Shown here piece by piece: positions 4,553-53,230 of a DNA stretch of 64,000 nucleotides. Under the pieces are notes generated by a model. The model did not search any database and was not told the origin of the DNA. It saw nothing but the letters and a program-made list of their open reading frames with translations. The position numbers were made by a program, and so were the translations under genes. Source of the stretch: an uncultured candidate division Zixibacteria bacterium (GTDB lineage Bacteria; Zixibacteria; MSB-5A5; UBA10806); assembly GCA_963801605.1 (NCBI GenBank), contig CAWDFP010000007.1:392285-456284 (forward strand), given 5' to 3'. Positions within the stretch are counted from its first letter, which is position 1. Each line of letters opens with the position of its first letter.

Positions 4553-4569
4553 GTGACTCGGAACCCGAC

Positions 4570-10900: not shown

Positions 10901-12580
10901 GATCCGGGCGGAATCAGGGACGCTGATTCCCTGCTGCCGTCGGGTATGGAATGAAGCAACCTCCATGATACCTTCGAAGTCGGTATTTAGAAGAATCAGG
11001 CAATAAGTGGCATCGGCGTAATCGGTCAGTTTACTGGCCACCACCTGCAAGACGGATTGCAAATCAAGTTTGGATGAAATGGCCAGGGAAGTTTCCTGAA
11101 GAATCTTGGTTTTATCATAACGGGCTTGCTTGCCCTTTTCAACCTCAAGCCCGTATAGCAATCCTGCCAATAACTTTTTGACAATGTCAGAACACTGTTC
11201 AGGCATCATCAGGAAAGGATTCGATTGTCCGGAGATCAGGACTAAAAGCCCCATAAATTGAGCCTTGACTGTCAACGGGATTACCGCTAAATGCTGGTCT
11301 GGTTCAAATAATTTTCGCCAGGGCTCATCGGGATAATCGCCTCCGGTGAAATAGAGGCTTTCCTCCTGATTTCGAGCATGCTTAATGAAACTTAAGCCGG
11401 CGGACGATTGACAGATGGCACTCAGGAGTTCATCGGTAATATTATTTTTGCAGGCTGCCTGCGCACCGTTGTCTGAGGGATCCAAAGTAAGGATTACTCC
11501 GGAAGCTGATCCGGTAGTGCTAACGATGAGCGACAGGATTTCCGCCAGAGACGTCTGCTCGTAACCCTTTTCCTGAATGATGGCCAGGGCGGCGGCAGTC
11601 AAATCGATTGATCTCTTTAAACCTGCTTTCTCGTTTTGATTTTCGTCAACAAGCTGGAATATCTCAGTTAGTTCGGGCATTTCATTTTTCAATGAATCGT
11701 GATCCCGTCGGAATATATCGACGCCATGTTTTTGCCGTTTGAGGATTTTTCTTAAGATCGCCGAGTGGTTGGCGAACGATTCAAAGTACCGATAAAGCAA
11801 AAAACAAAAAAGGATAAATCCTATAAAGGGCAAGAATCCCAAGGCGATAATTTCCCATCCTGAAATAATCGATTTTTTGACAGCCGCATGCTTGATATTC
11901 ACTCCCACCAACGACACTTGTTTGCCATCGAAAGTAGTAACGGCGTATTTAGCAACGGAATCAGGCAGAGTGGTTGAGATAGAATTTGTCAGGGGTAAGG
12001 ATTGTTTATAGATTCTGTGGTCAGTATCTACCGAGGCATACAGTTTATCGATAGGCAGGGCAATAACGAGGATGTCCTTAAGCGCTTTCGAGAAACCGGC
12101 CGTATCGCCGGTGAGCCGGTAACCGGAAACAGAATAGAAGTTATTATTATATGCGATATGGCCATTATCAAAACCGCTCTTAATCATGGCGCGATAGTTT
12201 TTTATTAATATGGAGTCGGAGTTACCCTGAGCGGAAATCAATTTATCATTTGAATCAATAAAATAAATTAGAGAATTGGTAATTCCTTTTCCTGAAAATT
12301 CCTGTTTGATAACATCGATGGCTTCCTCGGAACTCTGGCCGCGCTTAAGATGCCTCTGCAATACTCCGGCGGCATCCATAAGCATGTCGTGAGCCAGGAG
12401 ATCGGAAGTCTTCTGGATATATTCAAAATAGGAATAGGTCTCGCTTTGTTCGATACCGGCAATTTGCCGGTTGGTATTATAGTTATTGATATAAATCAGA
12501 ATAAACGAAAATAAGGTTATCGTTAGCCCGATGCCCGCCGTTTTAGTAAAAAGAGATTTTCTTGAACCGACTATTTTCAT
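7909..12580 (-). CDS. Membrane-anchored multi-GAF hybrid histidine kinase, split by a frameshift near 8965
   Basis: The 1210-aa ORF has 2 TM segments and about 5 GAF-like repeats and ends just after the H-box VVHDFNNILAAILGR. ORF 7909..9033 continues in another frame with LQII..., HATPase and REC. Confidence 0.88.
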
Positions 12581-16409: not shown

Positions 16410-18483
16410 CTATCTCAATGGTGGAGGGCAATCGATGCAGTAGTGAAGCGCTCCTCCGCGCCTGAGGTAATTGACCAGATAGATAATGTCCAGGCCGTCG
16501 ACGCTACAACTGCCGTTGACATCGGCGCTAACCTCCATGGCTCCGTAGGAGGCACAACTGCAGGTTTGCAGGGAATTATTGCCGCCCAGGAAATAGCGCA
16601 CCAGATAGCTGACATCAAGGCCATTGGTGATACCGTCACCGTTGATGTCGCCGGCTCCATACTGGCATCCCCCCTGCGTTACAACCATGCTGACGGGGAT
16701 ATCGAGAGAAAGATTATTTTCGTCGTTGGTGCGAAGCTTCAGGATAACATCATAAGTACCGTCGGAAAGGCCCTCGCTGTTGAAAGAAAGGCTAACCGCC
16801 TGGTTTCCGCCAGCAGGAATGGGGCCTTCATGCGGATCGATACCCAGCCATGAAAACGAATTGCGGCCTCCCATATAAAAAGCGGTTGCAAAGTTGCTGT
16901 GTATATAATTGGAGTTGTAAGCAACCTGCAATCCGATTGTGCCTAATAGATTTTCGATACCTACCGAGCACTCGTTAAGCCGTCCCGGACCCATGTTGGC
17001 GTATTGATAAATGATCGTATCGGGGGCAATCATAATAATCTGGAAGGTGAATGTCCCGGCCTGGCGGGTATCTTTAACATTCTGCCAGGTGATAATAGCC
17101 GAATCCGATTGGTTGGAGTAGAAATAGATATTGCCGCCATATTGAAGAGTAAGATCGTCATAAAATACGGCCATCAGGTTGTTGGGCAACGCCTGGTCGG
17201 GAATAGCAACGTTATCCGGAGTATAGAAATAGGCATTCATAAAGTATGCGAGGCCGTTGACGCTAACCTTCACATAGCTATACTGGTGATCGTAGAAGTT
17301 GAAGTTAAATCCCAATTGCTGGTTGGCCGAGACTCCATCATTGGGATCATTTAAGCTGAGCTGCTGCCCGACCTGAGTGATATCTTTCCAATTATAAATC
17401 GGTCCGCCAGAGGAGTCACTACTGCGCCAATAGTAACCAAAAGCATCCTGCCCGCCGGCCGGCGCCGCCAGCAAATCGTAGCGCATTTCGCCGCTTGCCG
17501 GTATTAATGAGGTTCAAGGTTCTGGTTCTCAGGGCATGATCAGGCAGATCAATTGAGAAGGATTCCGGATCATATACGAGCGCCGGCAAACCGCCTTCTC
17601 GATAGATTGGCCGTTGAGTATAATTTCCGAACGAGGCCGAACCGTACTGGATATAGAAAAAGCCGTGCATTCCCCAGCCCGGGCCCCAGCTATTTTTAAC
17701 TATCCAGGCGCCCTGTCCATCGCACATATTGTCATCCCATCCAACAATAAGTACGGCATGATTAATGGGCTCCCCGCCGGCATGGGAATAACAGCCGCTG
17801 CGATAACCGTAAAAATCATCATAAACGGTAAACGTGGTGGATAGCGGTCCATACATCAGGGCATTTTTAATGGCGTTAACATTATTAGCCACATCCACAA
17901 ATCCAATGATATTGGCGATTGGCTGGCATTGATCCTGAGTGCAGGGGATTTGATCATCGCCACCGTAAGGCATACAAGTTTCAGCGACTGCGCCGTAATC
18001 AATGAAGAGGTTATAAGCATCGCTCATCCAACCGCCCCGACAACTGGATGTTCCGCTGTTGCAGGAAAGAACCTGCTGTTCGGAAAAATCGGGGACGCTA
18101 TCCTCGGCAATGATATAAGCAGATTCAAAAGCGGCAGTAGCGGCAAAAGCCCAGCAAGAACCACATTGGCCCTGATCGGTGACCGGTGAGACGCCACCAA
18201 GATCACGCCAATCGAAATGGCTCTCGGTATTAAGAAGAGTCGGCGGCGCAGTGCTATCGAGTTGAGCGAAACGCTGTTTGACATATTCAGGAATTATGAC
18301 ACCGAGCCTTTGATGACGTTCTTCCAGCGTCAAATCCATCATGGAGGTCTGATCGGCGGTCCAGCTCAGGCCGTTGTCCTCAATATATTTTTGGATTTGC
18401 AGAACTTCCTGCGAAACCTTGGCGTTGACGGGAGACCAAATAAAAAGAATGGCCGCAAACAAAATGCCGGCAGTAGTACGCAT
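16410..18483 (-). CDS. Secreted C1 (papain-like) cysteine peptidase with a NIDO-like domain, an Ig-like domain and a C-terminal dockerin; frameshift near 17495
   Basis: QGQCGSCWAF, NHAVLIVGW and WIVKNSWG give the catalytic motifs. The second frame ends with GDINGDGITNGLDVSYLVRY...ADVNGSCSVDGLDIIYLVNY. Confidence 0.88.
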
Positions 18484-18573
18484 CGAGTACCTCCAATTGG
18501 TATTTCGTAAACTCACGCCATAAACTTACATAATAATAAGGTTTTGTCAATTAAAGATATTGCCTGGCACTAT

Positions 18574-20053: not shown

Positions 20054-21798
20054 TTACTGCTCAAGATCGGTAGAAAGCTTATAGCGCAAAATACGATTAT
20101 TGCCGGTATCAGCAACGTACACGGTACGGCGATCGCCGAAGATATCGTAGGTGATTCCGCCTGGTGAACTCATTTGAATTGCCATCTTAAATTTAAGGGC
20201 AAATCCGTTACGAATGCCGGTAGCCGGAGTCGTCAGGCCCTTGGAACCGTTGGGGCTTTCGATACCCACTGTAGCAGAATCTCCCCATCCGGAGGAGCTT
20301 TTATACTGGAATACAATGGAGCTATCAGCGGGATTTAAGATAAGCTCGAAAGTTTTGCCAAGGGTATCGGCAGTATTTGGTACGTTGTCATACTGGATAA
20401 CGAAGAGATTGGAGGCTGGATCGTGCCAATAATAGATCCCCGATGATGTCACCGACGGGTCTAAAGCCTCTCCGAAAACGGAAAGAACGGCGTTGGGAAG
20501 AACAGCGTTCGGAATTACCGGGGCGGTGGGCAATTGTGCAAGAGGAAGGAAACTGCACCAACCGTTCGAAGTTATGCTGATGCTATCATAATTAGCAGTA
20601 TAGAAATTAAAAGCTCTTCCCATTGGAACGCGGACAGAGGAGTTTGGCAGAAGACCGGTAGCAGTACCGGCTCCACCCTTTTGAGGATTGATTTCAATCC
20701 AGTTGTAGGTTAAGCCTTCATTATCATCGATACTAATCATCGAATATAACTGATCAATCGGCTTTAGGAGCGCGCCCTGCTTGGAGAATTTGACGGCGCC
20801 CGCATATCTGTCGGGGCCGCCATCAACTACATAGATATTGCCCTGAGGATCGACAGTAGCGCCTTTGGGACATGCTGAAAAAGCCACGGCGCAACAGATC
20901 GGTTTCGGACGGACTGTGAGTGTAGTTAAAGACCCAATGTCTGATCCCAAACCTGACGTTCGCAGCGTAAGATCGTGAACCGGGATAGCTTCCTGAATCC
21001 TGGCAGACAATAAGATGAGTTGCACCAGAGAGCTGGTAGGCATAGATAGAGTTGGGGAGTGTGGTGGTGGTGACGCCGTTGCCGGTAATAACGATGGGAT
21101 TAATTAAAGTATCACCAACGACGCCCAGCTAAGGAGTTCATGATTAGTCGAGTCAACTCCAAAAATCCGGTCAAGGAGGGAATCAGCATTCTCTCGATTA
21201 TCACCGAATCCCCGGAACCATAGTACGCGGCCGTTATTCATGCGATTTGACGAGACGGCCACAAAATAAGTTTTATCATAGGCCGGAATATCGGTTATCG
21301 ATATAAATCGGTCAGTCGAATCGATCATAGCATGATGTTTGACGCGAGTAGTATCGTTATAGGGAATATTGATCGTAATCGAACGCAACTTTAGGAATAC
21401 CGTCTCCGCCGGGGCCAACATCAATTTTATAAACCTTCTTCTCCCCCGTTACCACCAGCAGCCGCATGAGCTCGTCCTGAGCTGACAGAAATCGGGTTAT
21501 TGATGGCATATTCGGCCCGAATCGTACCGGCGGCGTCAAGCTGCAGGATACGATTGTTACCGGTATCGGCTATGTAGAGGTAGGTATCATGTCCAAAATA
21601 GATGCAGGTGGGACGTGAGAAGTTGTAGCCGTGAGCGGCGTCCCAGGGCGGATTGAGCATCAGATATAAAGTATCACCAAGGTTACCCGTCGGCGGAACC
21701 TCAGTTGGAAGTTTCATTTTTTCCCCGCAGGCGAAAACAATAGCCAGAACGAGCAAAATCAGAGGCAGTACCCAGCGTCTATTCACTAAAAGCTCCAT
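20054..21798 (-). CDS. Lipoprotein with NHL beta-propeller repeats and an inserted NIDO-like domain; about 4 frameshifts
   Basis: Lipobox IVFA-C. YIADTGNNRI, IYVVDGG and VYVADTGNNRI repeats. Pieces join across frames near 21480, 21365, 21125 and 20870. Confidence 0.7.
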
Positions 21799-22779
21799 TG
21801 TAAGGAAAATGTATTGGAGTTACCCAGATCGCCTACAGCGGCGTAAGCATAGTCGAGGCTGCTCTTGGTGGAAAACAGATCGAACTTCAGTCCCAAACCA
21901 ACTGAATAGCTCTGGGTATCGTTGCTTAACTTATAACCGCCCCGAAGAAAAAGGCTTTTATTTAAGCCATATTCGGTGCCGAATGAAAAGGACTCGGCAT
22001 TATCGGTGGGGTGATCGAGTTGAACCGAAGCCTGCCAGGCGTTATTTTGATTACTCATAATATCGGCGGCCACTCCGATTCTAAAAACGGTCGGAGGAGA
22101 AAACGATTGATATGATTTGGGAATTATTTCGCCGGAGGGATTGGTATAGTTATACGAGCCGCCCGGCTTGACCTGCTGGCCAAAATTTGAAAGAGTAACC
22201 GAAAAACGGGTATTATGATAGTTAGTTTGGTAGTAAGTCCCGAGATCGAGCAGGAAACCTCGCATTCTCAGGTTCTCCAGGCTCTCCTGGGCAAATTTCG
22301 CGGTGGCTCCAAATGAGAAGAAGTCAGTCAGGCGCTGACAGAAACTCAAGCCCACGGCCATATCGGCGAAACCAAACTTGTCGCCGGTACCATAAGGATG
22401 ATACTCGTCGGTGACATTCATATCGGGCGTTCCCAGATAGAGGAAACTGACTCCCACCGCGCGATCATCGCTAAGTTTCATGCTGTAGCCGGCGTAGTCG
22501 TAACTGACATCAACCACCCACATATTATGCGAGAGAGCGACCATGTGAGATTCGCCCCAGACCATGGTGGCAGGATTCCAGTACAACCCGTAACCGTCCT
22601 CGCTGGCACAAGCGACAGCGTTACCCATAGCGGCCGCCCTGGCGCCGGCCCCAAGCTTGAGAAATTGCATGGCGGCGGTTCCGGAGCGAGCGGCTCCCAA
22701 ACGCGGCAGTATATTCCAGGCCAATGCCAGCGACTGGCGCCAGAAAGGCGATAATCAGAACGCAGGCGAATGCCTTCAT
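21786..22779 (-). CDS. PorV/PorQ family outer-membrane barrel; frameshift in the signal peptide near 22735
   Basis: FLKLGAGARAAAMG, LYWNPA, LDLGTYY, LFLRGGY, LDYAY, C-terminal aromatic WSF. ATG at 22779 (MKAFACVLIIAFL) is in another frame. Confidence 0.85.
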
Positions 22780-22781
22780 CT

Positions 22782-25536
22782 TTACCATGAGAAGGACACC
22801 CCCATCTTAACATTTCTTGGGTTAAGATACCTGGCAGGATTGAAAGGAAACGGAGTCAGCGGCGATGGATCGGGGTTCAAGGGATCGTTCCAGGTATCGA
22901 GGACGGGATCGCCATACTCGTAGGCCCGTCCGGTTAAAGGATTGATAATATCGGAGTTTTTATCGTTGAATAAATTGGTGATCTCGGCAAAAACAGAAAA
23001 ACGTAATCCCATCGGACGGAAAAATTTCTTAATGCTGAAATCAACCCAGTGCCAGGTTTGCGAAAGCCCGGAGTTAGGGTTCAGATTATTGGCTATGTAT
23101 TGAACCTGCTCACCCTGCCTCTCAATCCTGGTGTAGGTGGTATATCTCTTCCCGGACTGGAAGAAGGATCTCAAATAGAAGTCCCAATCGGAGGGCAACG
23201 TTAGGCCAAAGACATTATAGTGATCTTTGGGGCCGGCGTATAAATTTAAATCCAGCGCCAGGCGCAAGGGGCGATCCCAGGAGAGATAATTTTCCTTAAT
23301 CGATCTTTCAGCAAGCTGTCCTCTGGCGACCAGAAGCTCATCTTTGGGAGATGAGGATTTGCCGGTAGCAATTGAATAGGACCCGGTCAGATCGGCCGTG
23401 AAAAATCTGCCGGCTCGCTTTTTATATTCTATTTCAAGACCTCGTGAACGGGCATAATCGAGATTGAAATACATGAGGTAGGACTGGGTGCTGGTTCGTC
23501 CGGTTTGAGTAATTTTGAGAGCGGCGATATAATCGAAAATATCGCGGTAATAAGCGGTCACGGTAAGAACATCGTTGGTGGTAACTTCATAGCGCAGATC
23601 CAAGCTCATAGGATACCGTAGTTTCGGGATTGAGATCGGGATTGCCAAAGAGCTGATAGGTGGATTGCGAAATGGAATTCAGCTTGGCATAAACTCTTTG
23701 CGGCTGGGGCAGCTTGGAAAAATGGCCGTAAGAATAGAAAAGCATGGCGTTATCGAGAATCGGGTGCGAGATGCCCAGTCGCGGCGAGAGATGGGCTTTG
23801 CCTCGCAGACCAAACATATCGAAAGTATTTTTATAATAGGATTGCCGTAAGGCCGGAGAAACAATCAACGAATCCTGTACGGCGCGATCGACGTATTTCC
23901 CGGGGAACCACCAGTCGAATCTCATACCGAGATTGACGATCAGACCCGAGGATGTCATTTTATTCTGAACGTAGGCAGCTCCCGATGATGGATAGACCCG
24001 ATAGATATCGTGATTCAGACCCAATCCGGTCTGGCCTGACCAGGGCTGAATGATATCGACCATTTGCATGGTTTGGATATTTTCCTCGATACCGGATTTT
24101 AAGAGGTTCTTCTCCCCCAGACTCTTGGTAAGATCACCTTTGAGAGTATACTGTTCGAAAAAGTGATCGTGCCAGGTATCGCCATCACCATAATCGTAAA
24201 AACCGTCACCTGTAGTGACAGTATAAGCGACTGTATCAAGGCCGTGCTGGGCGTTGGGCTGAGTGATAGGAAAATAATTAATCGGGACCATATCGATAGG
24301 CTGATTATAGGCCAGCCAGTGCTTGCCGCCAACATCGCTGTGAAGCTGAGTAAAAAATCTCGACAAGCGCATTTCATAAAAGAAGGTCGGTGAAGTGGTG
24401 TGAGTCCAGGTAAGCGAGGTTTGATTGGAAATTCTGGTCTGGGTATTGTAATGATCCAGATTATACTGGTATTGATAAGGATAAGAATTGAAATCCGGCT
24501 GCGGATTTTCAAACTCATTGGCCGAGAAACCCTGATCTATATTAGCAGAGCCGCTCGTGGAAAATACCAGTCTGCGGGTCGGAGAAAAATCCCATATCGC
24601 CTTGAACAACCCGGAATAGTTATTTGAACCCCGGGGCGCATATTTATGGCCGCCGAAAATCGATGAATACAGATTATTGCTGTGGGGCAGGTAAGTATTC
24701 GAAAGGAGACCATAACCTGAAGCGAAGAAAGACCCTTTTTTGCCGGTTAATGGAATCGGCCCCGACAGAGAGATCTCGCCAACATCGGAATTATAATTAG
24801 TCAGGCCGATCTTATCGGTTTTGTAAGTGAATTGTCCTTTCAATCTTTCGGAGCCGCGCTTGGTTTTAACCTCGATAACCCCGGACATCGATTGCCCGTA
24901 TTCGGCGTTGAAACCTCCGGTTAAAACCTCAACTTCCTCGATGGAATTTGCGGAAAGCATCAAGCCTGATGTCCCGCCCGAGAATGGGTCCTGAATCGAA
25001 AGGCCATCGATGAGATAGGAGTTTTCGTAAGCTCGGCCGCCTCTGATATGAATTTCATTTTTCTCGGCGACCACGCCGGGCTGATTGCGGATGAGATCGG
25101 TAACATTTTCGATGACCGAAGCCTCGATTTCTTTAGAGCCAATGGTCTTCTTTGATTCGGTCGATTCGATATCCAGCATGGGTTTCTCACCGATGACGAC
25201 GATATCGGTGCCAAGAGTGAGCACGCTGCTTTGCAACTTATAATCATTGGTAAGCTGGGAGGAATCGTTAACCACCAGGCCGTTACGCTGGATAACTTTA
25301 TAACCGATGAGGCTTATTTCGAGGTTATAGGTTCCCTCTTTGACACCGCTGACACGATAATTACCGTTGGGATCAGTCGCCGCGCCGTAATAGGTGCCCT
25401 TAAGCATGACATTGGCTCCAGGCAGAGCCTCACCATTTGTGGCGTCAGTGATCTTGCCTTGAAGGGTGTATGTCTTTTGTGAGAGGGCCAGCGCCGGGAA
25501 TAAAACGGCCAGCAATATCAGTCTAATAAGCCGCAT
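22782..25536 (-). CDS. TonB-dependent receptor with an N-terminal CarboxypepD_reg-like domain; frameshift near 23600
   Basis: GKITD..NGEALPGANV, plug IHIRGGR..ENSYLIDG..GGFNAEYG, SPRLGISHPI, GNPDLNPETTVSYELG, C-terminal NLFN...PRNVKMGVSFSW. Confidence 0.9.
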
Positions 25537-27022
25537 GTCCGAACTCCTGTTGGATTACATATCTTAACAAACTTTCAAAGTGCCCCGAACACAGATAAAG
25601 CTCCATCGAAAAATAGACGAGCTGGGCCGGTCCGGCAGCCGGATATTTGGCCGCGACAGTATCAACCCTGGTCGGAGTGGCATCGGCGCTTTGAGTATAG
25701 AGCGCCTGGACGCTACCTGGCATAAGACCGCTGGGCGAACCCGGCTTAAAGCCATAGGATTTGGAAAGCGGGTAGGAAGGAAAACCCGGTTCATTCGAGG
25801 CAAGCGTATCGGGGTAACCCGCAGGAGCGCTGCCGACCCTAACGATTCGGAAGCTTCGGCCAATACGAGGCGCGGTGACAGTATCAATTGGCAGGAAGGG
25901 ATAAATGACGGTATCACCTTCATAACGTTGAGTCGAGAATGCCAATAGATGACCGCCCGATGCCAGATATCTTGTAATGGATTCGGAAGCATCTTTAAAA
26001 TGAGGATAGGAACCGCCGTGCCAGATGATCACATCGAACAGCTTTAAGGTCTCCTCGATATCACGAGGATAATAGCTGAGCCTGTCAACGGTCACCCAAT
26101 TGGAATAATTATTGGCGCCATAGATATGCGTTAATGAGGAATCGATATCTTTGTCAATATCGGATGCATAGCGATCATCATCTATGAACAGAGCGCTACC
26201 GACCACCGGCATCACATTCCATTGTCCGGTCGTATCGGGATAATAAACGATGTTGGAGAAAGCGCTGGCGACGTCATGACATCTCAAGAAGAACCTGTAG
26301 CTGCCGGGCTGGAGATCGTTAAAAATCTTAAAGGTTCGGAGCGAATCCAGATGTACCCAGTTGGGCGAGTTGAGGAAATCATCCTGCCAGAAAATACTGT
26401 CATGAGGCGGAGTAGTCGGAGTGGCGGGCAGATGTATGATGCTATCGATAGGCATCGTGGCCGCATCGGCCAGATAATAATCATAACCTGTTATGGTGGC
26501 ATCACCATCAGGATCGCTTCCGGTCCAGCCAATCGAAAAATATGAGAAGCTGTTATAGACGTTGCCAGAGTAGTTGCGAACAAAATCAATCGGGAATTTT
26601 ACAGACGGCGGCGTATTCATCACCGGGAAGGATAAATGAGCCGGTGAGGGATCGGTCAGACCGTCATCATCGATGGCCCTAACCTCGAATGAAAAAGTGT
26701 CGTGAGGCACTCTGATGGGGACAAGGAAGGTGTCGGTGACAACCGTTGTAAAAGTCCAGCAAGTATCGCAACTGAAGCTCCATTTGTATTGGTAACCAGC
26801 CACTTCGCCATCGGGATCATCTCCGTACCAGTGTAATACCTGCATACTGGCAGATTCTCCCGGAAGCTGCAGAGTATCCGAAAAGAAAAGATACAGATGC
26901 GTATCCGGCGGAAGGTTAGTGTTCGGCTTGGTGGTACGATCAGTTGAGCAGGCAAAGAGTATTGCCAGCAATATCAAACTGATCGCGGCCCACCTGCCCC
27001 AAAATGTTTTAAAAGGTAGCAT
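25523..27022 (-). CDS. Outer-membrane lipoprotein with two Ig/Y_Y_Y-like domains and a C-terminal alpha/beta domain
   Basis: Lipobox ILFA-C. Repeated W.G.DPDG....Y.Y and F.VRA.D motifs. Function unknown. Confidence 0.7.
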   Translation of the reverse strand: MLPFKTFWGRWAAISLILLAILFACSTDRTTKPNTNLPPDTHLYLFFSDTLQLPGESASMQVLHWYGDDPDGEVAGYQYKWSFSCDTCWTFTTVVTDTFLVPIRVPHDTFSFEVRAIDDDGLTDPSPAHLSFPVMNTPPSVKFPIDFVRNYSGNVYNSFSYFSIGWTGSDPDGDATITGYDYYLADAATMPIDSIIHLPATPTTPPHDSIFWQDDFLNSPNWVHLDSLRTFKIFNDLQPGSYRFFLRCHDVASAFSNIVYYPDTTGQWNVMPVVGSALFIDDDRYASDIDKDIDSSLTHIYGANNYSNWVTVDRLSYYPRDIEETLKLFDVIIWHGGSYPHFKDASESITRYLASGGHLLAFSTQRYEGDTVIYPFLPIDTVTAPRIGRSFRIVRVGSAPAGYPDTLASNEPGFPSYPLSKSYGFKPGSPSGLMPGSVQALYTQSADATPTRVDTVAAKYPAAGPAQLVYFSMELYLCSGHFESLLRYVIQQEFGHAAY

Positions 27023-29012
27023 TTACTTTAAAAGCACCATTCTTTTGGTATCCGAATAGTCTTTGGTTTCAAGTTTATAGAAATAAACACCGCTGGAAAC
27101 TTTATCGCCCGCGGCGTTGTCACCGTTCCATTCAACATTATGCTGGCCCGGTTGGAGCTCCTGATTCACCAGACTGGTGACCTTCTCCCCCATGATATTG
27201 TAAACGGATAGGTTGACATGGGTCTTCTCTTTCAAATTGAAAGAGATCATTGTGGAGGGGTTGAACGGATTGGGATAGTTCTGCGATAAGGAATAATTTT
27301 CGGGAACGGCTACATCCTGGTCAACTCCGACAATCCACATGAAATCGGTGTAGAACCTGGGCATAAGCTCATAATAGCTATTGAACGGATCGGAGTAATC
27401 GTATTGGCTTAAAACACCCACGATATTGGCTCTGTTAGCTCCCTGAGTCTGGCCATCGATATCGGTCGAAAGATCGATACGCAAGGTGGCGCTGTCAGTA
27501 TCGACAATAGTCATGGTCGCCGATGAACCCAGCGGCGGCCAGGGATTGGGAGTCGGCAGCAACTGGACGTTGTTCAGACGCAACAGGGTTCCCTCATAAG
27601 TTTCGCCAACTATGTCACCGAGGGCGCCACAGGTTACAACCATCGTATCAGGTATATGGCCGGGTCCGTTGAGGGTAATGCGGTTACCTCTATAGGCTAC
27701 AACTCGGGTCTTACCGTAATACTGCTGGATGATACCATTGACAGTGATGGAATCACCGGGATTAACCATTATCTGAGTGGAATCGAAATATACCTCGATA
27801 CCGGCATGGGCTTGTTCCATGTAGAAATCGGTCTGGCGGGTGTTGAAGTTAGGTGACACCGCGATACCAGTGACGATCACGGCGCTATCCAATAGATCGG
27901 GGATGAAATCAGCGTTAGCGTCGATCCTGGCCTGAGCGATTGTCAGGGTACGAGGCTGCTGCACATGATACTCATGGAAGCTAAACGGGGCCTCATAAGG
28001 TTCATTAGTGACGTTATTGGAATCATCGACGGCGCGAACATAATAGTCAACGTTCCATCCGGCGACCGGCGATGGCAAGGTGAAGGTATAATTATCAGTA
28101 TTTGGCACATGCGTCATAGGAACGTTGGTCCAGCCGCCGAGATTAATTCGATAAACGAGTCTGACGCTGTCCTGCGGAAGCGGTTCGTCGTCAACCGCAT
28201 AGGCGGTGATAGTAACAGGATCGTTAACCAGAGGATAGGTCGGCGAATTGGATACGGTTACGATAGGCGCTCCGCGCGACAAGCGTAAATCTCTCATATA
28301 GCGCGGTTGAAGGCTGTAGATTCCAAAACGATGATAGATGACGCCCTGTACGAAATCAAATACGGTGCCGCGGGGTGGACGGAAAGAATTGGGGATAGAA
28401 TCAGCGGCTTCTCTAACGCACATACGGTGGCCGGTCGAATCATGACAAATCCAGGTGGAAGTTGTGGTATAATTTATAAGTGAATCGACGGTAAGTCCGT
28501 GAACGGAAATAAATACTCCCTCATATTGTTCGGCGGCAGAATCGGCGCCGGCAGTAGAATCGAGATCGGTGGCGCCGACTATCAGCGCTGGAGGCTCGGG
28601 CATACCATAACTTCTAAATTGAAACGAACTGGGGATGATTAGAAGTTCGGTCATGACATCATACTCCGGAGGAGGAAGCGAGGCATATTCGCTAACTAAC
28701 GGCAGTGCATAGGATTGAATCGCCGGGGACGAGAGTGGGATAGCCCTGCGCGCTGGCGCTATAGGCCATTATCCCTGACCAAGGGCCACCGGTAGGGTTT
28801 TCCATATAAAATGTAACACCCGTTCCAGCGTAGAATGCGCCCGTGCCGCAGGTAATCAGGCCTCCGGTAATTACGGTGTCGCCTGCAAACCTGGAACTAT
28901 CCTGGCCAACCGGCACCCACTGAATGCTGTCGATAGGCACGGTTGGGTAACTCAGTGCCAGGGCAGGAATCAGCAGCACCGCTGCCAAAAACAGAATCGT
29001 TAGCACTTTCAT
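27023..29012 (-). CDS. Secreted protein with two YhcR/ExeM-like OB-fold modules, an Ig-like domain and a T9SS CTD; frameshift near 28692
   Basis: Signal peptide. FYME...SGIMAY..PGDSI...EY...TEL...EQYEGV...LQPR..DL occurs twice. C-terminus LSQNYPNPFNPST...SSGVYFYKL...KRMVLLK. Confidence 0.78.
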
Positions 29013-29024
29013 AATTTTTCTCCT

Positions 29025-31150
29025 TTATTTAATTACTACGAATCTTCCTCTTGAAACATCACCCGAAGCCAAATCTTCAACGGTAAAAAGATACATACCC
29101 GTGGCGAGCGCCTGATCGGCTTTGGTTACTAAATCCCAGGCGTGGATTCCACCTGAAAAGACTACATCTCCAGCGGCATATTGACTGAACCAGGCAACGT
29201 CGGCGCCGGTATAGGTGGCGCCGTCATGATCGATGGTGTCAACCAGGTCGCCGGCCAGCGTATAGATACGGATCGTACAGCGATCCGGGAGATTGGCGAA
29301 ATAAAGAAGCCTGGCTCTCTCCTGAACACCATCATCACCCTGACCATCCCAAATAGCGTTGGCTTTATAGGGATTGGGAAATACGGTAACTTCCCTCTTA
29401 GTATCTGCCTGTGAACCGGGAAAAGCCCTGCTATAACTTAAGAGGACTCCTGATTCCAGGCTGGGAAGGTTGTTGGTGGGATCGCCCATATCGAAAGCGG
29501 TGACGGCAAATGCATATTGCCAGCCGTTAAGCAATTGATCATTAGTGAATTTATAATAATAAGCATGACCATCCAAAGTTTCCGGTTGAGCCAGCTTGAT
29601 AAAATCGAGGCCGGTGTTATATCCCACCGAATCGTTTCTGTCGAACTGAGCAATTAGCTCGAAAAGTTGTTTGAGACCCGTATTCTGATTTTGCTGAGTA
29701 ATGCGGGCGCGATAAATCTTGTAACCCTCGAAATCGGTTTGCCCGGTAACGGGATCGATGAAGCTCTCGGGAGAATTATCCCAATAAACATCGACTTTAC
29801 CATCACCGGCGACAAGTTTCATGACGGGCGGCGGCGGAGCTTCCGGCAAAAGATAACGATCTATGCGATGGTTATAAGGCGGAAGGTCCTCGCCGGGATC
29901 GAGCCTGCCATTGCCATTTTTATCCTCACCGTTATAAGAGATTTTAGCCCAGCGTGAATTGGTGAATAAATTGAACCTGGATAGCTCGGTGTCATCTTCC
30001 ATACGATCCGGACCATACTTATTGGCGCAAACCACAGCAAATACAAAATTGATGGAATCACCCGGAGCCAGATCGGGAAAAGGCCCGGTGGCCAAAAGCA
30101 TAGAACGGTTGAGCGGACCCTGAGCGGCGATATAATCACGCCAACCATTAATAGTATTGAGGCCGGTTGTCATGTGCTGGTAACGCTCGGAGTCGTATTG
30201 CGGCATGAAAAGGACCGGGTCCTGATTATTCTTAAAAATCCATTCGTAGTAACTTGTCCGGGATAAATATGATTGCCCCGAATCGGGATCAATGGCGGGA
30301 GTAGTGCCTAATATTCTGAGTCCGATATAGCTTTGGGCATACCCGAAATCGCCGTCATAATCATATTCGTAACCCATCTGGAGAGAATCTATATAATTGT
30401 TGCCATCGTCGGTATAACGCCAGGAAGATGTCGGACCCCATCCCCCCGGAGGATTTAAGTCGGTGTTTCCGACCATGGTATCGACCCAATAACCTACGAA
30501 TGGTTCCTGGATGACATCGCTGCTCGTATTTTTTATCGTAAAATCAAGAATGACATAAGCGTCAGCGAAAGATTGGCTCCAGGCGTAGCTCCTCTGAGTG
30601 ACAGTAATCCCAGGGGACGATGATCAGGAATTTCCTCGCCTGTTTGCGGAATTACGGAGTTGGAATCGGTATAGGTACAAATAAAATCCTGGTGGCTGAT
30701 GGCGTTGGGATCATAATAAGGCGAAACGGGCAAGAGCGATCGTTCGATAATTGAATCTCCCGGAGAAGTGTGAATCTCGCCGGGCACTCCGTAACCGGTG
30801 GTAAATTCAAACCCCGAGGCCGCGCCATTGGGTTTGCGGGAAACATCAATTGCCCCGGTGGAAACGCGGATCTCGTTATTCTTGAGTCCGCCGACCCAGA
30901 GGCCGCCCATATACATGTGTTCGACATGGGAACCTATGGGATATTCGCAGGAGAGCCGGCCGCGTTCGGCAAATCCCAATCCCATCGTACCGTAATTGGT
31001 TATTACCAGGCTGATGTTGCCAACATTAACAGTATGGCGTTCGTCATCATCAGCTTTGAGAATGGAGGGAAAAGTAATTATAATAGATATTATAATCGCC
31101 AGGAATAATATTGGCACACGATAAAAAATAGCGGCTTTGACAGTTTTCAT
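29025..31150 (-). CDS. Secreted protein with an Fn3-like domain and a variant T9SS-like CTD; frameshift near 30610
   Basis: HTVNVGNISLVITNYG, EYPIGSHVEHMYMGGLWVG, DFEGYKIYR, YAFAVTAFD. Terminal VFPNPY...FANLP..CTIRIYTLAGDLV...WDLVT...ATGMYLF..RFVVIK. Confidence 0.75.
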
Positions 31151-31324
31151 TTTTTAGCTCCGCGCTCGGAGTCCTATTCAATTTTTTAAAAGATGCTCAG
31201 TAAATCAGACAGTAATATTGATTCACCCGAGGCCCCCATTCGCTAACAAATTATAACTAAAGCATCTACACAATAGCAAGGGGATTTTTCCAGACTCAAG
31301 ACTCGAAACGAATCTCACTTGCCA

Positions 31325-31360
31325 CAAAACAAATCGGGCTCCTCAATATGAGGAGCCCGA
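31325..31360 (-). terminator. Probable terminator after the 1232-aa gene
   Basis: Perfect 12-bp stem TCGGGCTCCTCA-ata-TGAGGAGCCCGA followed by TTTGTTTTG on the minus strand. Confidence 0.75.
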
Positions 31361-31383
31361 AAAATTACTTGTTCCGGTTACAA

Positions 31384-34300
31384 TTATTGCGCGTTTTGAG
31401 TATCAACTTTGGGTTGAGGCGCAACCAGCGGAGCAAGATCAACAATAGGCAAGCAGTCGGGGCATCCATGAACCATCGGACCACCCTTGAAGTAGCTCAC
31501 CATGTAGGTAACATCGAGACCGTTGAAGGAACAGGACGCATTAACGTCACCAGCGACAAACCAGGTATGACCAGGTGTGCACTCGCAGGAGTACGGCGGA
31601 GGCGGACCACCCTTGAAGTAACCAACTGAATAAGTTACATCAAGACCATTGAAAACATGGCTATTGTTGGCATCACCTACGGCATAATCGCAGCCTGTCG
31701 GCGATTCCAGCATGGTAGCGTTGACGTTAGTTGTCTGGTCGGCTGTTACAACGATATTGTTGATAATGTTGTTAACATAACCGGCTTTGCTCAGATGTTC
31801 GTGGTAAGTAGCAGGCGGAAGCAACAGACTCCAGGTACCTCCGACACCCGAGAGATTGTTACCAACCTCGACCTCGGCGGCGTTATGAGTAATAATGGTC
31901 ACACCTTCCAAGGGAGTTGTGCCGTCATGATCATAAACTATGCCGGCGATTGTGCCTTCCGGTCCAGCGCACCAAACTGATGACGAATTAAAGTCGGCAT
32001 TAGTACGCGGAGAAATGCGGAAGAAGCTGTGTTCAAATCTATAGACACCAGTGATTCCTCTGATGCGATCACCGAGAACCGGCACGTAGGTGTATCTGGT
32101 CCACAATCCATTCTTAACGACCATTAGGGATTCAGAAGGATTGGTCAGGCTATGGATAATCCAACCATAAGCGTCAAAAGCGGTATTGGTAACAACGAAG
32201 GAATCGCAATCGGTAACCAAATCGCTTTCATAATACTCGCCATGCGCCATCAGGTCGCTGGTCGCAATCTGATATGGTATCGGCGCGGGACCGGTGCCAA
32301 CGATTTGCATATTTCCATAGACGCTGACATCGCTAAGCTCAGTTTCCTGGAAATATTCGATGGCTTTACCAGTCGCAATAATCGTATCGCCGACGACAGG
32401 ACGAGGAGTGACGCCGCCGACATACATGTGGATGCCTCTGTATGGAGGACCGCTTTGGTCATATCCAAATATGTTGCTTGGCTGACTGGTTGTAGAATCA
32501 GAGGTAACAACCACCTTGGAAGTAAAGATATCGCCGATATAGATAGTTGAATCACCGCCGGCACTTGGAGTTTGAACTACTGATATCGAGGTAATTCCCG
32601 AATGGTACAGTTTGTAGTGCGGGGTTACCATGCAAACATTGACGCTATCGCAAACGCCGTTGACGATCAGGGAGTCGATTGAATTATTGGGCTGAGCTGC
32701 GGTAGTTAAAATCGCCTTGCGGTTGCCAGATGCAGCAGCGCCAAGAATCGACAGGCCGTGGACGGTCGAATAGAAGCTCGGATTGGAAATCGAGGTAGTA
32801 TTCATGGCTCTATCGAAAGTTACGGCTAATTGGGTATTGTCGATCGGCCAAACTGCGACAATGTTAGGCTCGGGAATAATTCCGATTTGGTAATCGGAAC
32901 CAGATCTCGGCATAAGTATCCAGCCCTGAACGTTGGGCGAGGTTGTTCTACCTTCCCAGCGAAGAACACCGATAATGTAGTCGTAAACGCCACCCGTAGA
33001 AGGAAGCGGGCTGGGAATGTTGGTTCCGCCGACCCACATATCATCGTCAATTCTGATTGAATCGGTGGAGGTATTGTCCCTGATCCAATATTTACCGTCG
33101 AGCTGGCTACCGGCCGAAAGAACGGTAACATTGTTGATTCTGATCAACTCGCTCTCCAGCGGCTCGGTTGAGTAATCGCATTTAAGAGCAAGTGTGGCGA
33201 CGGTAACAATACTGGTATCGGGTAGCGGCTGGCTGGGACCGAGTACCGTGAACGATTGAATGGTATCAAGTTCGGTCCAACCGTAGTATTCGTTTATAAA
33301 GCCATTTACCTGAACATAATCGCCGACATGGGCGTTAACAGGATCGCCGTTGGGAAGAGTATAGTCGTAGGAGTAGAGGCCGCCCCAGGCAGTATTGCCC
33401 TGATCCTGAAGATAGAAAGTGCCATAGGTGGCTTGCCGGACGGCAGTCACGATACCGCATACGGATTGATAGGTGCCGGCATACGGAGACGGCCAGCAAT
33501 TATCGCCGGTACCGGGATCGAGTGAATTTTCGAGCGTGAAAATATTCATACCGGTGCAGACGGTTGGAGCGGTAAAGAGATCCGCTGAAGTGCGCGGCAT
33601 GATTCTATAACGGCCGTAAGTGTAGCGGCCGATACCGCGAATGTAGGTGTATTGATGATTCATCTGGAAGACGCAGGAATCAACGCCGCCCAGAGAAAGA
33701 TCGTTAGAGACGATGCAGGTATCGCCAGAACCGTCAATACCCAGGAATTCGCCATTATCAGGACGAGGCAGGGTATCGATTAAGGTGATGTTATTGATCT
33801 GAATGATCATGCCTTCGTATGGTTCGGCGGTGGCGCTGCAACTATCGAGACCGAGTGTGGCGCAGGTTATTACGTTCGGCGCCGGCAATGTATGGCCCGG
33901 AGAGTGCTTGGTAAGCACGGAGACCGGACTAAGCTCTGTTTCAGCGTAATATTCACCCATAATACCGGTAACGGTTACGCTGTCGCCGACCTGAACCGTA
34001 TCGATCGATTGATAAACGTATAATCCCGACCAGGGAGTTGTAGCATCCTGGAGGAAGAATCTCATATGATATCCGGCGGTCGATCGTTCATATCGTCCGA
34101 CCACTATTCCGGTTACGGTTTCGCCCATTCCGAGTGAATCGGTGGGGAAACAATTTGGCAGAGTCCCTTGCACCGTGGTATGTTGAACGCTGTAGATCGG
34201 CACGTAGGGCGTAGCATAGCCAAAAACAGTATAGGTGAAAGTTTGTGATTGGCTGCGTCCACCGTCATCGTCAGTGGCAACCACATAGTAGTTAACAATC

Positions 34301-35082
34301 GTTCCTGCGGGTTGGAAGCCAATATGAAACCAGCGATCATTCCCGCCGGTGATACTGTCATGAGGCGCCGCAGTGAATGTTCCACCGTTAAGCTGGAGAT
34401 ATAAGCTGTCGGAAACGACAGTGCCGTCAATATCCTGAATAGTAGACTTGACGTTGACAAAAGTGTCGGGGTAAACGTTTCCGGCAGGTATTCTTACGGT
34501 CGGGCCAACAACGGGAGGCGTATTGCCCTGGGGAACCTGACCCCAAAGAACAACATCGTCAACCCAGATACTGTCTCTACGGCCGTAGACGCCGCCGTAG
34601 AATCTCAATTGAACAGTCAAACTTGTAGAATTGTATCTGGCGGTATCTGACCAGGTATAGAGCGTCCAATTATCAATATCAGTTGAATAAGTGGAGGGGC
34701 CGCTGCTTCCTGACGGTGAGAAGAAGAACCAAACGCGAACGCGCGGATTATTTATATCGGGAGTGTAATCGTAAACCCATAAGCTGCAGGAATAAGTGGT
34801 TCCGGGAACAACTGGTATGGGCGCGTGATCTAATCTGAGTGTGCCTGAAGAATCATAAACAACTTTAACGCTGTAAGTTCCGGAATGAACTCGTCCGGTT
34901 TCCTGCAAAGCGCTGATACGCGGAGTGGCAAGTGTCCAATTATCGGGCGGACCGCCTGGACCGTTGTTATTCCATAATTCCATACCCCCATTGGCCATTA
35001 CCTGCTGGTCTTGGGCAAGCGCCGGTACCCAGGCAGATATAAGAACAATCGGGATAAGTAGCCACAGTAGATTTTTTTTCAT
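31384..35082 (-). CDS. Large secreted protein: CBM-like domain, Ig-like domain, three OB-fold modules, CarboxypepD_reg-like domain and a dockerin
   Basis: Signal peptide; NGGMELW...PDNW (CBM4/9-like start); three repeats of V.GIV...F.LQD...GLY.Y...VGD.V.V.G...EYY..TEL...E.YE...PR...D; terminal GDANNSHVFNGLDVTY / GDVNASCSFNGLDVTY. Confidence 0.82.
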   Translation of the reverse strand: MKKNLLWLLIPIVLISAWVPALAQDQQVMANGGMELWNNNGPGGPPDNWTLATPRISALQETGRVHSGTYSVKVVYDSSGTLRLDHAPIPVVPGTTYSCSLWVYDYTPDINNPRVRVWFFFSPSGSSGPSTYSTDIDNWTLYTWSDTARYNSTSLTVQLRFYGGVYGRRDSIWVDDVVLWGQVPQGNTPPVVGPTVRIPAGNVYPDTFVNVKSTIQDIDGTVVSDSLYLQLNGGTFTAAPHDSITGGNDRWFHIGFQPAGTIVNYYVVATDDDGGRSQSQTFTYTVFGYATPYVPIYSVQHTTVQGTLPNCFPTDSLGMGETVTGIVVGRYERSTAGYHMRFFLQDATTPWSGLYVYQSIDTVQVGDSVTVTGIMGEYYAETELSPVSVLTKHSPGHTLPAPNVITCATLGLDSCSATAEPYEGMIIQINNITLIDTLPRPDNGEFLGIDGSGDTCIVSNDLSLGGVDSCVFQMNHQYTYIRGIGRYTYGRYRIMPRTSADLFTAPTVCTGMNIFTLENSLDPGTGDNCWPSPYAGTYQSVCGIVTAVRQATYGTFYLQDQGNTAWGGLYSYDYTLPNGDPVNAHVGDYVQVNGFINEYYGWTELDTIQSFTVLGPSQPLPDTSIVTVATLALKCDYSTEPLESELIRINNVTVLSAGSQLDGKYWIRDNTSTDSIRIDDDMWVGGTNIPSPLPSTGGVYDYIIGVLRWEGRTTSPNVQGWILMPRSGSDYQIGIIPEPNIVAVWPIDNTQLAVTFDRAMNTTSISNPSFYSTVHGLSILGAAASGNRKAILTTAAQPNNSIDSLIVNGVCDSVNVCMVTPHYKLYHSGITSISVVQTPSAGGDSTIYIGDIFTSKVVVTSDSTTSQPSNIFGYDQSGPPYRGIHMYVGGVTPRPVVGDTIIATGKAIEYFQETELSDVSVYGNMQIVGTGPAPIPYQIATSDLMAHGEYYESDLVTDCDSFVVTNTAFDAYGWIIHSLTNPSESLMVVKNGLWTRYTYVPVLGDRIRGITGVYRFEHSFFRISPRTNADFNSSSVWCAGPEGTIAGIVYDHDGTTPLEGVTIITHNAAEVEVGNNLSGVGGTWSLLLPPATYHEHLSKAGYVNNIINNIVVTADQTTNVNATMLESPTGCDYAVGDANNSHVFNGLDVTYSVGYFKGGPPPPYSCECTPGHTWFVAGDVNASCSFNGLDVTYMVSYFKGGPMVHGCPDCLPIVDLAPLVAPQPKVDTQNAQ

Positions 35083-37242: not shown

Positions 37243-37255
37243 AAGGAAAATTCAT

Positions 37256-37285
37256 AAAAAAACCGGGGTCCGCAGGGGACCCCGG
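37256..37285 (-). terminator. Rho-independent terminator after ino1
   Basis: CCGGGGTCC-loop-GGACCCCGG next to an A7 run. Confidence 0.8.
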
Positions 37286-37308
37286 CTACAGAATGCAATG
37301 AAATTTAC

Positions 37309-48186: not shown

Positions 48187-49964
48187 TTATTTGTCTTCTC
48201 CAATAAATACGTTACGCAAATCGAGGTAGCCGGCGCTTTCGCCAGTGATACCGGAAATATCGGGTTTGGCATAAACCGAAAGATACGGTTGATATAATAC
48301 TACGAGAGGCGGATCGAGGGAAATTGATTGAGCCAATCCCGCGGCAACGCTCAAGCGTCGCTCGGTGTCGGTTTCGGTGCGCATACTTTCAAGAAGGCCA
48401 TAAGCGGTTTCATCGGTGTAATAAAGAAAATTGGTTTCTTTCGACAGATTTGGCGCTCAACATCGGGTAGAGCATACAATCGGGGTTGTCACCGGCCGGA
48501 AGGTAAGTCGTAAGATACAGGTCGATATCAGCATCGGTTTTGGAATCATCAAGCGGGAGGCTAAAATCCAATTTTTTCTCGGTAATCTTAATTCCCCGAT
48601 ATTGAAGCTGTCCCTCAATGTAACGGGCCACCTTGCCAAGGACCGGAAAGGATGAATCGATATAAAGGTTTAAATTTTTGGGAAGTAGGATCACCTGGCT
48701 AAGATAATAGGATGCTGAATCCGGCGCATAAGGATCATAAAGCGGATAGGTCATTTTCTCTTGTTGGGAAATGGTGATATTGGGTTTTGCCCCCGAACCT
48801 CCCAATATGACTCGAATTATCGAGCTGCGATCCAACAGAAATGAGAGAGCCTTGCCGAAATCCTGACCAGCCTGGTAGCTGCGACGGTTATCAATGCCCA
48901 AAATAACATAGGCGTTAGTTTCGAGATTTTGAGAGGAATTATTTCCTTTGCCAACGAATTTTGGAGGAGGCTCACCGAGAGCAGGAAACAGGTCGAGCTT
49001 GCCGAGTTCATAAGCCAGACCGGCCTCCTCGGGAGAGGCAAAATGCACGAATTTTATACTATCGAGATACGCGCCCGGGTCATCCGCGGAAGCAAGTTCC
49101 ACGACAAGGCCGCCGGGATCGCTATATTTCATGCGGTACGGCCCGGCCCCAATGATATTGGCCCCCGAGGAAACATATCCCGGCACAGGCACTATATAGC
49201 CGCCCGGCCCCGCGAGATAATCCTCGAATGCCGGGAATGGCCGTCGCAGTGTTATGGCGATGGTGGTATCATCAATAACGAATAAACCGTCGATTTCATT
49301 TTTTAATCCGCTTCTGTAATTGTCGGCCCCATTTATTTCCATAACAAAGCAGGACGCGTTGGTAAGCCTGGGAGCACGCGCCAATTGCTCCAGCGAATAG
49401 ACTATATCGGCGCTGGAGACAGGCTTGCCGTTATGAAATTTTGCCACAGGGTTGAGATAGAATGTATAGGTTAAATCTCTAATTTCGTAATCGGTACATA
49501 GGTCGGGCTGAATCTGCCCCGAGCGATCCGTTTGAAGCAGGCCGCGATGAATCAAGCGGGCCACCATCATATCCTCGGGGGAATAAATTTGGGATGGTTC
49601 CAGATTCAGATCATTAAAATATGCGACGGTGATGAAACCTCCACGGCCGGCATGAGCAAAGGTGAACCTGATTTTAGCGATGAGTTGATCCAGATCGGAA
49701 AATGCGGAAACCACCATAGAATCGAACGGCTCGGAGCGAGAGATATTTTGATCGGCCCAGGCGATTTTACCGGAAGCGACTACGTTGTTATCATCATAGA
49801 TTTCGAAGCGCTGGCCGGGAGCTATACCGTCCTTCTGGCCAACGTCAAAATAAGCGATATCGGATTTTACCAGAATAACTCCGGCCTTGATATAATCCTG
49901 GGTATCAGCCGAGGCTATGCCCCAGAGACCAGCACAGGATAAGCGGTATTAGGATTTTTTTCAT
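48187..49964 (-). CDS. Family-5 (OppA/DppA-like) solute-binding protein with an extra N-terminal domain; frameshifts near 49920 and 48450
   Basis: ATG at 49964 begins MKKILIPLIL. LIHRGLL..D..G.I.PDL...YTFYL....KFHNGKPVSSADIVYSL and GAGPYRM. The C-terminus continues in ORF 48187..48384. Confidence 0.8.
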
Positions 49965-52916: not shown

Positions 52917-52919
52917 CCT

Positions 52920-53228: not shown

Positions 53229-53230
53229 GA

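Follow-up and report, generated by a model that had tools for sequence, protein, structure and literature searches.

The last 64 kb of contig C7 (CAWDFP010000007.1) in the 3.06 Mb, 87% complete genome of an uncultured candidate division Zixibacteria bacterium, a stretch that we call the window, carries a cassette of six genes, B to G, that encodes a TonB-dependent transporter with secreted and surface partner proteins. We think it probable, by a modest measure, that this cassette captures extracellular DNA or RNA and imports the breakdown products as food through the transporter, E. Gene order, folds, family assignments and the co-occurrence of nucleases support this reading, while we infer the contacts and the transport step. 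By open reading frame (ORF) calls and comparison with orthologs, seven co-directional genes lie on the minus strand from 35082 to 20054 once frameshifts are bridged (lengths in amino acids, aa):

Gene A, 31384..35082, minus strand: 1232-aa secreted protein, intact and optional; of 10 relative loci in which this position is visible, 7 have an ortholog beside B
Gene B, 29025..31150, minus strand: secreted protein of ~700 aa, with a beta-supersandwich domain, an FN3 domain and a variant C-terminal domain of type IX secretion system (T9SS) type
Gene C, 27023..29012, minus strand: secreted protein of ~665 aa, with a double-OB module, an Ig domain, a second double-OB module and a T9SS type A-like tail
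Gene D, 25523..27022, minus strand: 499-aa lipoprotein, invariant Cys25, intact
Gene E, 22782..25536, minus strand: TonB-dependent transporter of ~920 aa, with an N-terminal carboxypeptidase-regulatory-like domain
Gene F, ~21786..22788, minus strand: PorV/PorQ-family barrel
Gene G, 20054..~21798, minus strand: NHL-repeat lipoprotein

From B to G the genes are separated by 12, 0, -14 and -7 nt, followed by an overlap of F and G. A preliminary description of this stretch had reported seven co-directional genes of which the six from 31150 to 20054 abut or overlap, and this is correct once the frameshifts are bridged. Its treatment of the seven as a single locus stands for B to G, which are the conserved unit, but not for the large OB protein A, which is optional.

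The cassette is conserved well beyond this genome. An ortholog of B occurs in 14 of 60 relatives, and 13 of these 14 loci could be examined, the remaining contig being too short: the order B-C-D-E-F-G is complete in 10, and the other three agree up to the end of the contig. In the phylum of the window as a whole, 11 of 201 genomes have a strong B ortholog, a patchy distribution of the kind expected for a nutrient locus. In a sample of the phylum Bacteroidota, 94 of 301 genomes have one, and 20 loci picked on large contigs among these 94 all keep the cassette order (D is untagged in one), with an OB or DUF5689 match at the position of C in 18. A metagenome set contributed 80 loci; in 28 of them, five or more ORFs were called beyond a tagged B. 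C-D-E-F-G follows B in 19 of the 28, and two more have the set with a tagging gap. For B and C alike, the closest named homologs belong to candidate division Zixibacteria, and further B homologs carry names from KSB1, Eisenbacteria and Zhuqueibacterota. Because several carriers are large-contig genomes, a cultured host probably exists.

The secreted proteins A and C share a module of ~210 aa. Across the genome, a module profile search matched A three times, C twice and no other gene, in agreement with the five copies in two secreted proteins described earlier:

OB module A1, 33574..34206, minus strand: module profile match
OB module A2, 32887..33525, minus strand: module profile match
OB module A3, 31987..32592, minus strand: module profile match
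OB module C1, 28286..28946, minus strand: module profile match, split by a frameshift
OB module C2, 27335..27964, minus strand: module profile match

The copies are 22-40% identical, with invariant F, G, GD, Y, T, E, E, PR and D. An AF2 model of a same-genus ortholog of C (pLDDT 88) was used to examine the fold. Whole-model Foldseek results were dominated by Ig/FN3 matches, and the fold assignments come from VIA searches, in which three of the four barrels were matched individually: residues 24-134 (Z 11.7, root-mean-square deviation (rmsd) 3.0, 95 aa), 139-245 (Z 10.0, rmsd 3.0, 96 aa) and 354-457 (Z 11.4, rmsd 2.1, 87 aa). The first half of the module matches OB domains of MCM, RPA and AspRS at Z 10-11.7 and the second half that of Teb1 at Z 10.0; SpnA is absent among the VIA matches listed for the C barrels. 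By sequence, the PDB matches of the module profile are the SpnA entries 9SF8/9SF9 only (OB3 of SpnA in 9sf8, E 7e-7), which are described in PMC13601614. DUF5689 matches 40 of 62 C homologs at E<=0.01 and exceeds its cut-off in the closest C ortholog (31.8 versus 28.6 bits); the family scan gave no DUF5689 match to the window's own pieces. Each module is, as modeled, a double OB fold related to those of ExeM/SpnA-type nucleases and to DUF5689. The likeness to ExeM-type nucleases that had been noted at the outset is thus borne out by the predicted structure and by the DUF5689 and SpnA matches. In SpnA and ExeM, the OB domains are required for DNA cleavage (PMC13601614, PMC6085458).

A consists of an N-terminal beta-rich domain, an Ig-like domain, three double-OB modules, a carboxypeptidase-regulatory-like domain and a dockerin-like tail that resembles the adjoining Dockerin_1 proteins. 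The ExeM_NucH N-terminus family matches A in three stretches (E 1e-23), and family profile scans found no catalytic domain in it. C ends in a tail of Por_Secre_tail/FlgD type (TIGR04183, 41 bits versus a cut-off of 23). By inspection, the signal peptides of A and C are type I, and the tails are T9SS or dockerin-like. In some C orthologs, a dockerin-like tail replaces the T9SS type A tail (L032:8323-10428, A4 homologs); because C orthologs end in either, the two tails are interchangeable on one protein in Zixibacteria.

Nuclease association and substrate

The genes around the cassette in other genomes point to nucleic acid as its substrate. In 12 of the 20 Bacteroidota-phylum loci, a nuclease or phosphodiesterase gene lies at most two genes away: NPP in six, EEP in four (one of them just below the Pfam cut-off), OB-PLD in one and endonuclease I in one. 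Marine metagenome loci of the cassette are also flanked by EEP genes. For comparison we used 25 sister cassettes, described below, which belong to two other clades; no secreted-nuclease family was recognized among their flanking genes scanned (0/25). In a taxon-matched count, EEP lies within three genes in 4 of the 10 complete relative loci versus none of the 25 sister cassettes.

Across 61 genomes, OB modules occur in 17, of which 15 are cassette carriers, while 10 genomes encode a secreted EEP nuclease, all of them carriers (10/15, versus 0/46 of the others). In six of these 10 genomes the EEP gene is unlinked to the cassette. Of the 12 carriers in the two nearest families, 10 have the nuclease, and none of the 12 non-carriers there does; the EEP-negative carriers are two genomes that are 87% and 69% complete. 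The co-occurrence of cassette and EEP is strong but falls short of a formal test. The module itself is fused to EEP, PLD and MBL hydrolases in other proteins. Two secreted MBL-fold hydrolases with fn3 and one double-OB module are encoded in cassette carriers (L208:1079-5437 and L211:1222-5220); these are possible further nucleases.

The charge of the transporter barrels agrees with such a cargo. Barrels of this cassette's clade (clade I) are near neutral (median net charge -3, n=17), while those of the two sister clades are acidic (medians -23.5, n=8, and -36, n=13); the lower acidity of clade I suits a polyanionic cargo. DdbC-like barrels, from transporters adjoining strong DUF5689 matches that we used as stand-ins for DdbC, have a median of +8 (n=10). 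L183_0, a non-transporter, was left out of the charge and DdbC counts.

The suggestion of a nucleic-acid substrate in the preliminary description is therefore supported by genomic context, namely the flanking nucleases and the EEP co-occurrence. Its view of the OB proteins as non-catalytic binders holds in that A and C contain no nuclease domain, but relatives pair the cassette with a secreted nuclease, adjoining or elsewhere. The locus was also correctly described as free of SusD and glycoside hydrolases: family scans found no SusD/RagB match for D or G, and no carbohydrate-active enzyme family in any of the seven genes A to G.

Several observations weigh against nucleic-acid uptake. Searches of this 87% complete genome found no EEP, endonuclease I, PLD or NPP, and in the Bacteroidota-phylum sample 8 of 20 loci lack a nuclease at a distance of two genes or less. 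The six NPP loci are probably close kin and may represent one event. All 25 control cassettes belong to the class of the window itself, the EEP query was taken from a cassette-linked gene, and the related genomes counted are not independent of one another. Among the 28 metagenome loci, four continue from B with C-D-E but have neither F nor G at the locus (L100, L106, L134 and L140), one has no OB protein (L103) and one has B alone (L136); in one more, only C follows B. With eight frameshifts, this copy may not be expressed intact. The OB domains of SpnA also contact proteins, specifically complement C5b67 (PMC13601614). The fold of B is typical of carbohydrate-active enzymes, and the family nearest to D, DUF4960, is of the type found in polysaccharide utilization loci (PULs). 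Finally, the modules are acidic, with net charges of -9 to -14 here and a median of -17.5 over 182 modules, and the DUF5689 stretches of DdbD-like proteins are less so (median -4, n=11). The acidity disfavors simple electrostatic binding of DNA; metal or stacking contacts might come from the invariant E, E, R, D and the aromatic positions.

Some of these points would also fit a different substrate, such as another phosphodiester or polyanionic polymer or a nucleotide-type small molecule (teichoic acid, capsular phosphopolymers, NAD or nucleotide sugars). The EEP, NPP and PLD families are not specific to nucleic acid, and the flanking enzymes could be general phosphodiesterases; the acidic modules and the carbohydrate-type folds of B and D agree with such a substrate, as does the fusion of CBM_4_9 and LTD domains to the module in proteins unlinked to the cassette. 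We nevertheless consider it improbable, given that an endonuclease I gene flanks one locus, that the only solved sequence relative of the module is a DNase accessory domain, and that EEP, PLD and MBL hydrolases occur as fusions with the module.

If the substrate is DNA, the cassette might instead be the outer-membrane entry for natural transformation, with the OB proteins binding long DNA, E passing it to the periplasm and ComEC and DprA taking over from there, a route proposed for the TonB receptor/DUF5689 pair of Riemerella. In Riemerella anatipestifer, RA0C_RS04915/RA0C_RS04920, a TonB-type barrel and a DUF5689 protein, are essential for natural transformation (PMC8459023). Our genome encodes ComEC and DprA, and searches of it found no nuclease of cassette type. 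Against this, the link to secreted nucleases in relatives fits degradation, E is not DdbC-like, and neither comEC nor dprA was recognized among the flanking genes scanned (the flanks were scanned in part). The genome also encodes the secretin PilQ, so the usual pilus route may exist. We regard a role in transformation as quite improbable, and nutritional use of DNA or RNA remains the reading that we prefer; two 5'-nucleotidases are encoded in this genome.

The transporter frame and its sister cassettes

Family assignments for the remaining genes agree with those proposed initially: E is a TonB plug/barrel protein, F belongs to PorV_fam and G has NHL repeats, as C has the expected T9SS-type tail and A the ExeM_NucH N-terminus. 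E is highly conserved (63% mean identity). It matches the SusC profile TIGR04056 at 68.8 bits (cut-off 368), in the N-terminus only. A profile of E matches its own sister clades at E 1e-82 to 1e-141, whereas 9 of the 10 DdbC-like transporters match at E 1e-9 or weaker and the tenth is unmatched; in a FastTree phylogeny the DdbC-like transporters form a clade apart from E. F matches NF033709 (PorV_fam) at E 1.4e-60 (205.6 bits, cut-off 90), falls below the PorV, PorQ and PorV2 equivalog cut-offs, and matches PorV of known structure (6h3i_F) at E 2.7e-20. A housekeeping porU-porV pair lies elsewhere, with PorU at C6:1378993 and a PorV-like match directly after it, and SprA is encoded as well. 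F is a cassette-specific PorV/PorQ paralog distinct from that pair.

The model of a B ortholog (pLDDT 86.8) has, in residues 22-423, a beta-supersandwich like the N-domains of GH15/GH94/GH116 enzymes (VIA Z 18.8, rmsd 3.4, 255 aa). In place of the helical catalytic barrel of GH15/GH94-type enzymes, B has an FN3 domain and the variant C-terminal domain, a tail with no Pfam match that is nevertheless modeled as a beta fold like that of such C-terminal domains. We considered and rejected B as an enzyme, as the supersandwich is present and the catalytic barrel missing; still, with its invariant D, E and H residues, B may have an unrecognized active site. A PDB sequence search found no relative of B, and its Atlas matches are unnamed clusters. 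D has no Pfam family match and no convincing relative in a PDB sequence search; its nearest named Atlas cluster is DUF4960 (score 0.91), its other Atlas matches being unnamed. BT1761, the levan surface glycan-binding protein (SGBP), carries DUF4960. G contains a lineage-specific insertion of ~165 aa near its end (window 20180-20680), with 30% identity to the middle domain of a neighboring protease. G gains other extra domains in other lineages (L023, L029 and L026), either a domain like the N-terminus of A or LVIVD repeats.

Two further cassettes with a transporter, a B-like protein, a PorV-like barrel and a D-like protein are present in this genome:

Clade II cassette, C11:214200-226000 (L035): transporter, 620-aa B, PorV and two lipoproteins, followed by dacB (S13), lysA and alr
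Clade III cassette, C6:1158300-1167000 (L036): 1130-aa transporter, 870-aa B, PorV and a lipoprotein

We examined 42 stretches around B paralogs, two from this genome and 40 picked among the matches listed. Of these, 25 are sister cassettes and 17 contain B-like genes without a cassette, often in arrays; none of the 42 has an OB or EEP match. FastTree phylogenies of the transporter, PorV and B each split into the same three clades, all of which are present in this genome, and OB proteins occur in clade I only. According to these trees and gene contents, receptor, B, PorV and D make up a general platform with three co-evolving clades. Because the same frame occurs in two clades without OB proteins, the OB protein, G and the nuclease would be substrate-specific additions of clade I. 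The preliminary description had stated that a TonB/PorV core that usually lacks OB-fold genes would count against its reading. Broadly, such cores are found, in 25 OB-free cassettes including two in this genome; because they form separate clades, they refine rather than refute the assignment of the OB-bearing cassette to nucleic acid.

The neighbors of the sister cassettes suggest other substrates. Among nine clade II loci (L035, L041-L044, L064, L065, L072 and L076), dacB follows in seven and lysA in eight, and alr follows in both loci scanned for it. Clade II is on this evidence a candidate importer of peptidoglycan fragments; a Marinimicrobia isolate is reported to live on muropeptides (PMC11652737). 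Clade III loci often have a PfkB kinase gene after the cassette and LplA before it (L036, L046, L047, L049 and L050). Because all these loci come from one class, the neighbors in clades II and III may be inherited synteny. Four clade III loci carry a tandem duplication of B and PorV as a unit, with identical or near-identical PorV and divergent B, which fits a complex of the two. B genes of clade III type, with up to 21 matches per genome, also occur without transporter or PorV, often in arrays of two or three (L052, L053, L055, L056, L059, L063, L069 and L078), and these are possibly exchangeable lids.

Such transporter-free genes, found in the 17 stretches mentioned above, would also be expected if the complex were a surface scaffold or adhesin platform, directed at an eDNA (extracellular DNA)-rich biofilm matrix or at partner cells, with E carrying something unrelated or acting as a sensor. 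The dockerin-like tails of A and some C orthologs and the ability of OB domains to bind proteins agree with this. However, the trees of E, B and F share their three clades, E is always within the clade I operon, and it is highly conserved; we consider a scaffold very improbable.

In the mechanism that we propose for nucleic-acid uptake, A, B and C would exit through the T9SS (SprA and PorU being encoded in the genome). B would stay at the surface, its variant C-terminal domain docked on the private PorV-like barrel F, and would serve as a lid over E in place of the SusD lid of Bacteroides, with the lipoproteins D and G as accessory partners at the surface. Nucleic acid would be bound by the OB modules of C and A, probably by way of metal ions and stacking on aromatic residues and not through charge. 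Cleavage would fall to a secreted EEP nuclease whose gene lies next to the cassette or at another site, and the resulting oligonucleotides would cross E and be trimmed by periplasmic 5'-nucleotidases.

We suggest more tentatively, as plausible but somewhat short of probable, that the platform is an ancient SusCD-independent importer of the Fibrobacteres-Chlorobi-Bacteroidetes (FCB) group, which has split into substrate clades much as PULs have, with clade I taking up DNA or RNA, clade II peptidoglycan fragments, and clade III using up to dozens of exchangeable B lids per genome. If so, the platform would account for the feeding of Zixibacteria, KSB1, Marinimicrobia and deep Bacteroidota on necromass polymers without SusCD, and PorV paralogs would gain a new job as permanent anchors for a transporter lid. 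With three sister clades, substrates would be predictable from neighbor genes.

Frameshifts and boundaries of this copy

The cassette in the window contains eight single-base frameshifts, one each in B, C, E and F and four in G; A and D are intact. Those in B, C, E and F were located by ortholog comparison:

Frameshift in B, near 30610, minus strand
Frameshift in C, near 28698, minus strand
Frameshift in E, near 23610, minus strand
Frameshift in F, signal-peptide region, minus strand

The orthologs of the broken genes in relatives are intact and set the true lengths. This copy could be a recently broken locus and not a mis-polished assembly, whatever the function of the family. Eight frameshifts in ~15 kb compare with ~4 in ~26 genes around the locus and 6 in 21 distinct genes elsewhere, a density ~3x background (Poisson P about 0.002-0.006), and the cassette is absent from 9 of the 14 genomes of the family. 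On the other hand, the segments matched to orthologs contain no in-frame stops, identity to orthologs is undiminished after the breaks (74% before and 71% after in B, 85% and 76% in C, 74% and 75% in E), and the housekeeping genes transketolase and serC carry frameshifts too. Read error is more likely than decay, and we consider a recently broken locus unlikely, though far from implausible.

Two consensus matches separate A from B:

Terminator-like 12-bp stem 3' of A, 31334..31360, minus strand
Sigma-70-like site (10/12) upstream of B, 31250..31279, minus strand

Sigma-70-like sites are frequent in the region (40 found versus 25 expected); the site upstream of B is likely the start of a B-G operon. 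We rejected A as a core gene, as it is absent from 3 of the 10 visible loci and the terminator-like stem lies between it and B. Also rejected as parts of the cassette were gene H (fn3-dockerin), the neighboring C1 protease gene and the upstream APS-kinase-like gene, all kept in close kin only.

The papain-family (C1) protease gene, with a dockerin tail (window 16410-18516), has one frameshift, and same-genus genomes carry an intact version. A large multi-GAF sensor gene (window 7909-12580) likewise has one frameshift relative to its same-genus ortholog. Two intergenic repeats of ~40-45 nt (window 4530-4575 and 37250-37300) occur in several copies in this and same-genus genomes. Contig C14 of the same genome (7.4 kb) matches the window at 49900-54800 with 76-94% identity and is a strain or relative haplotype within the bin.

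Comparison with known systems

Among the listings of the open-access literature searched (PMC, bioRxiv), neither the cassette nor the platform is described. Its parts can be compared with several known systems. Like the levan utilisome, a SusCD system (PMC7618045), it combines a TonB transporter with several surface partners, and the family nearest to D is DUF4960; the levan SGBP combines a ThuA-like binding domain with two Ig domains (PMC7618045). However, the cassette has no SusC- or SusD-level match and no glycoside hydrolase, and a predicted secreted protein on a private PorV-like barrel replaces the lipoprotein lid; it is not a SusCD PUL. F is a PorV/PorQ-family barrel and can be compared with the T9SS PorV (6h3i_F) and the FadL-fold pair BamG-BamH; barrels of this kind hold a partner protein on their extracellular loops (PMC12578637). 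Unlike the T9SS PorV, F is a cassette-specific paralog that co-evolves with the transporter. With nucleases of the ExeM/SpnA/YhcR type the cassette shares the double-OB module on which their DNA cleavage depends (PMC6085458, PMC13601614), but A and C have no nuclease domain and the module forms arrays of two to four copies.

The closest functional parallel is ddbABCDEF of Bacteroides thetaiotaomicron (Sharan et al. 2025, PMC12478041); where the preliminary description knew of no characterized example, an analog is available there and in its Riemerella relative (PMC8459023). The ddb locus and the cassette share a SusD-free TonB transporter beside a DUF5689 double-OB surface protein. The Riemerella pair shares a TonB-type barrel with a carboxypeptidase-regulatory domain beside a DUF5689 protein, but it is a two-gene core of DdbCD type, has its role in transformation, and has no PorV- or B-type gene reported. 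The DUF5689 protein is part of the ddb locus, where it is a lipoprotein partner of the transporter (PMC12478041), while the OB proteins of the cassette are cargo with T9SS or dockerin-like tails. E is not DdbC-like, and genes of F, B, D and G type were unrecognized in 12 DUF5689 loci examined. The ddb loci usually carry secreted nucleases, with nuclease-free variants such as Pv2 (PMC12478041); for the cassette, searches found no such nuclease in this 87% complete genome, and one is present in 10 of 14 related carriers and beside 12 of 20 Bacteroidota-phylum loci.

A strong DUF5689 match occurs in 23 Bacteroidota-phylum genomes, only one of which is among the 94 with a B ortholog. The ddb-type locus and the cassette look mutually exclusive, which may reflect taxonomy only, in two samples that differ in size. 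We conclude that the cassette would work like ddb but is not a member of that system, since the transporter and the type of OB protein differ. In sediments and seawater, large amounts of phosphorus, nitrogen and carbon are stored as extracellular DNA and RNA. The sole characterized TonB-based route for these is DdbCD, a two-part system found in gut Bacteroidales and Riemerella. If our reading is true, the cassette would be a second, independently built TonB-based route for extracellular DNA and RNA.

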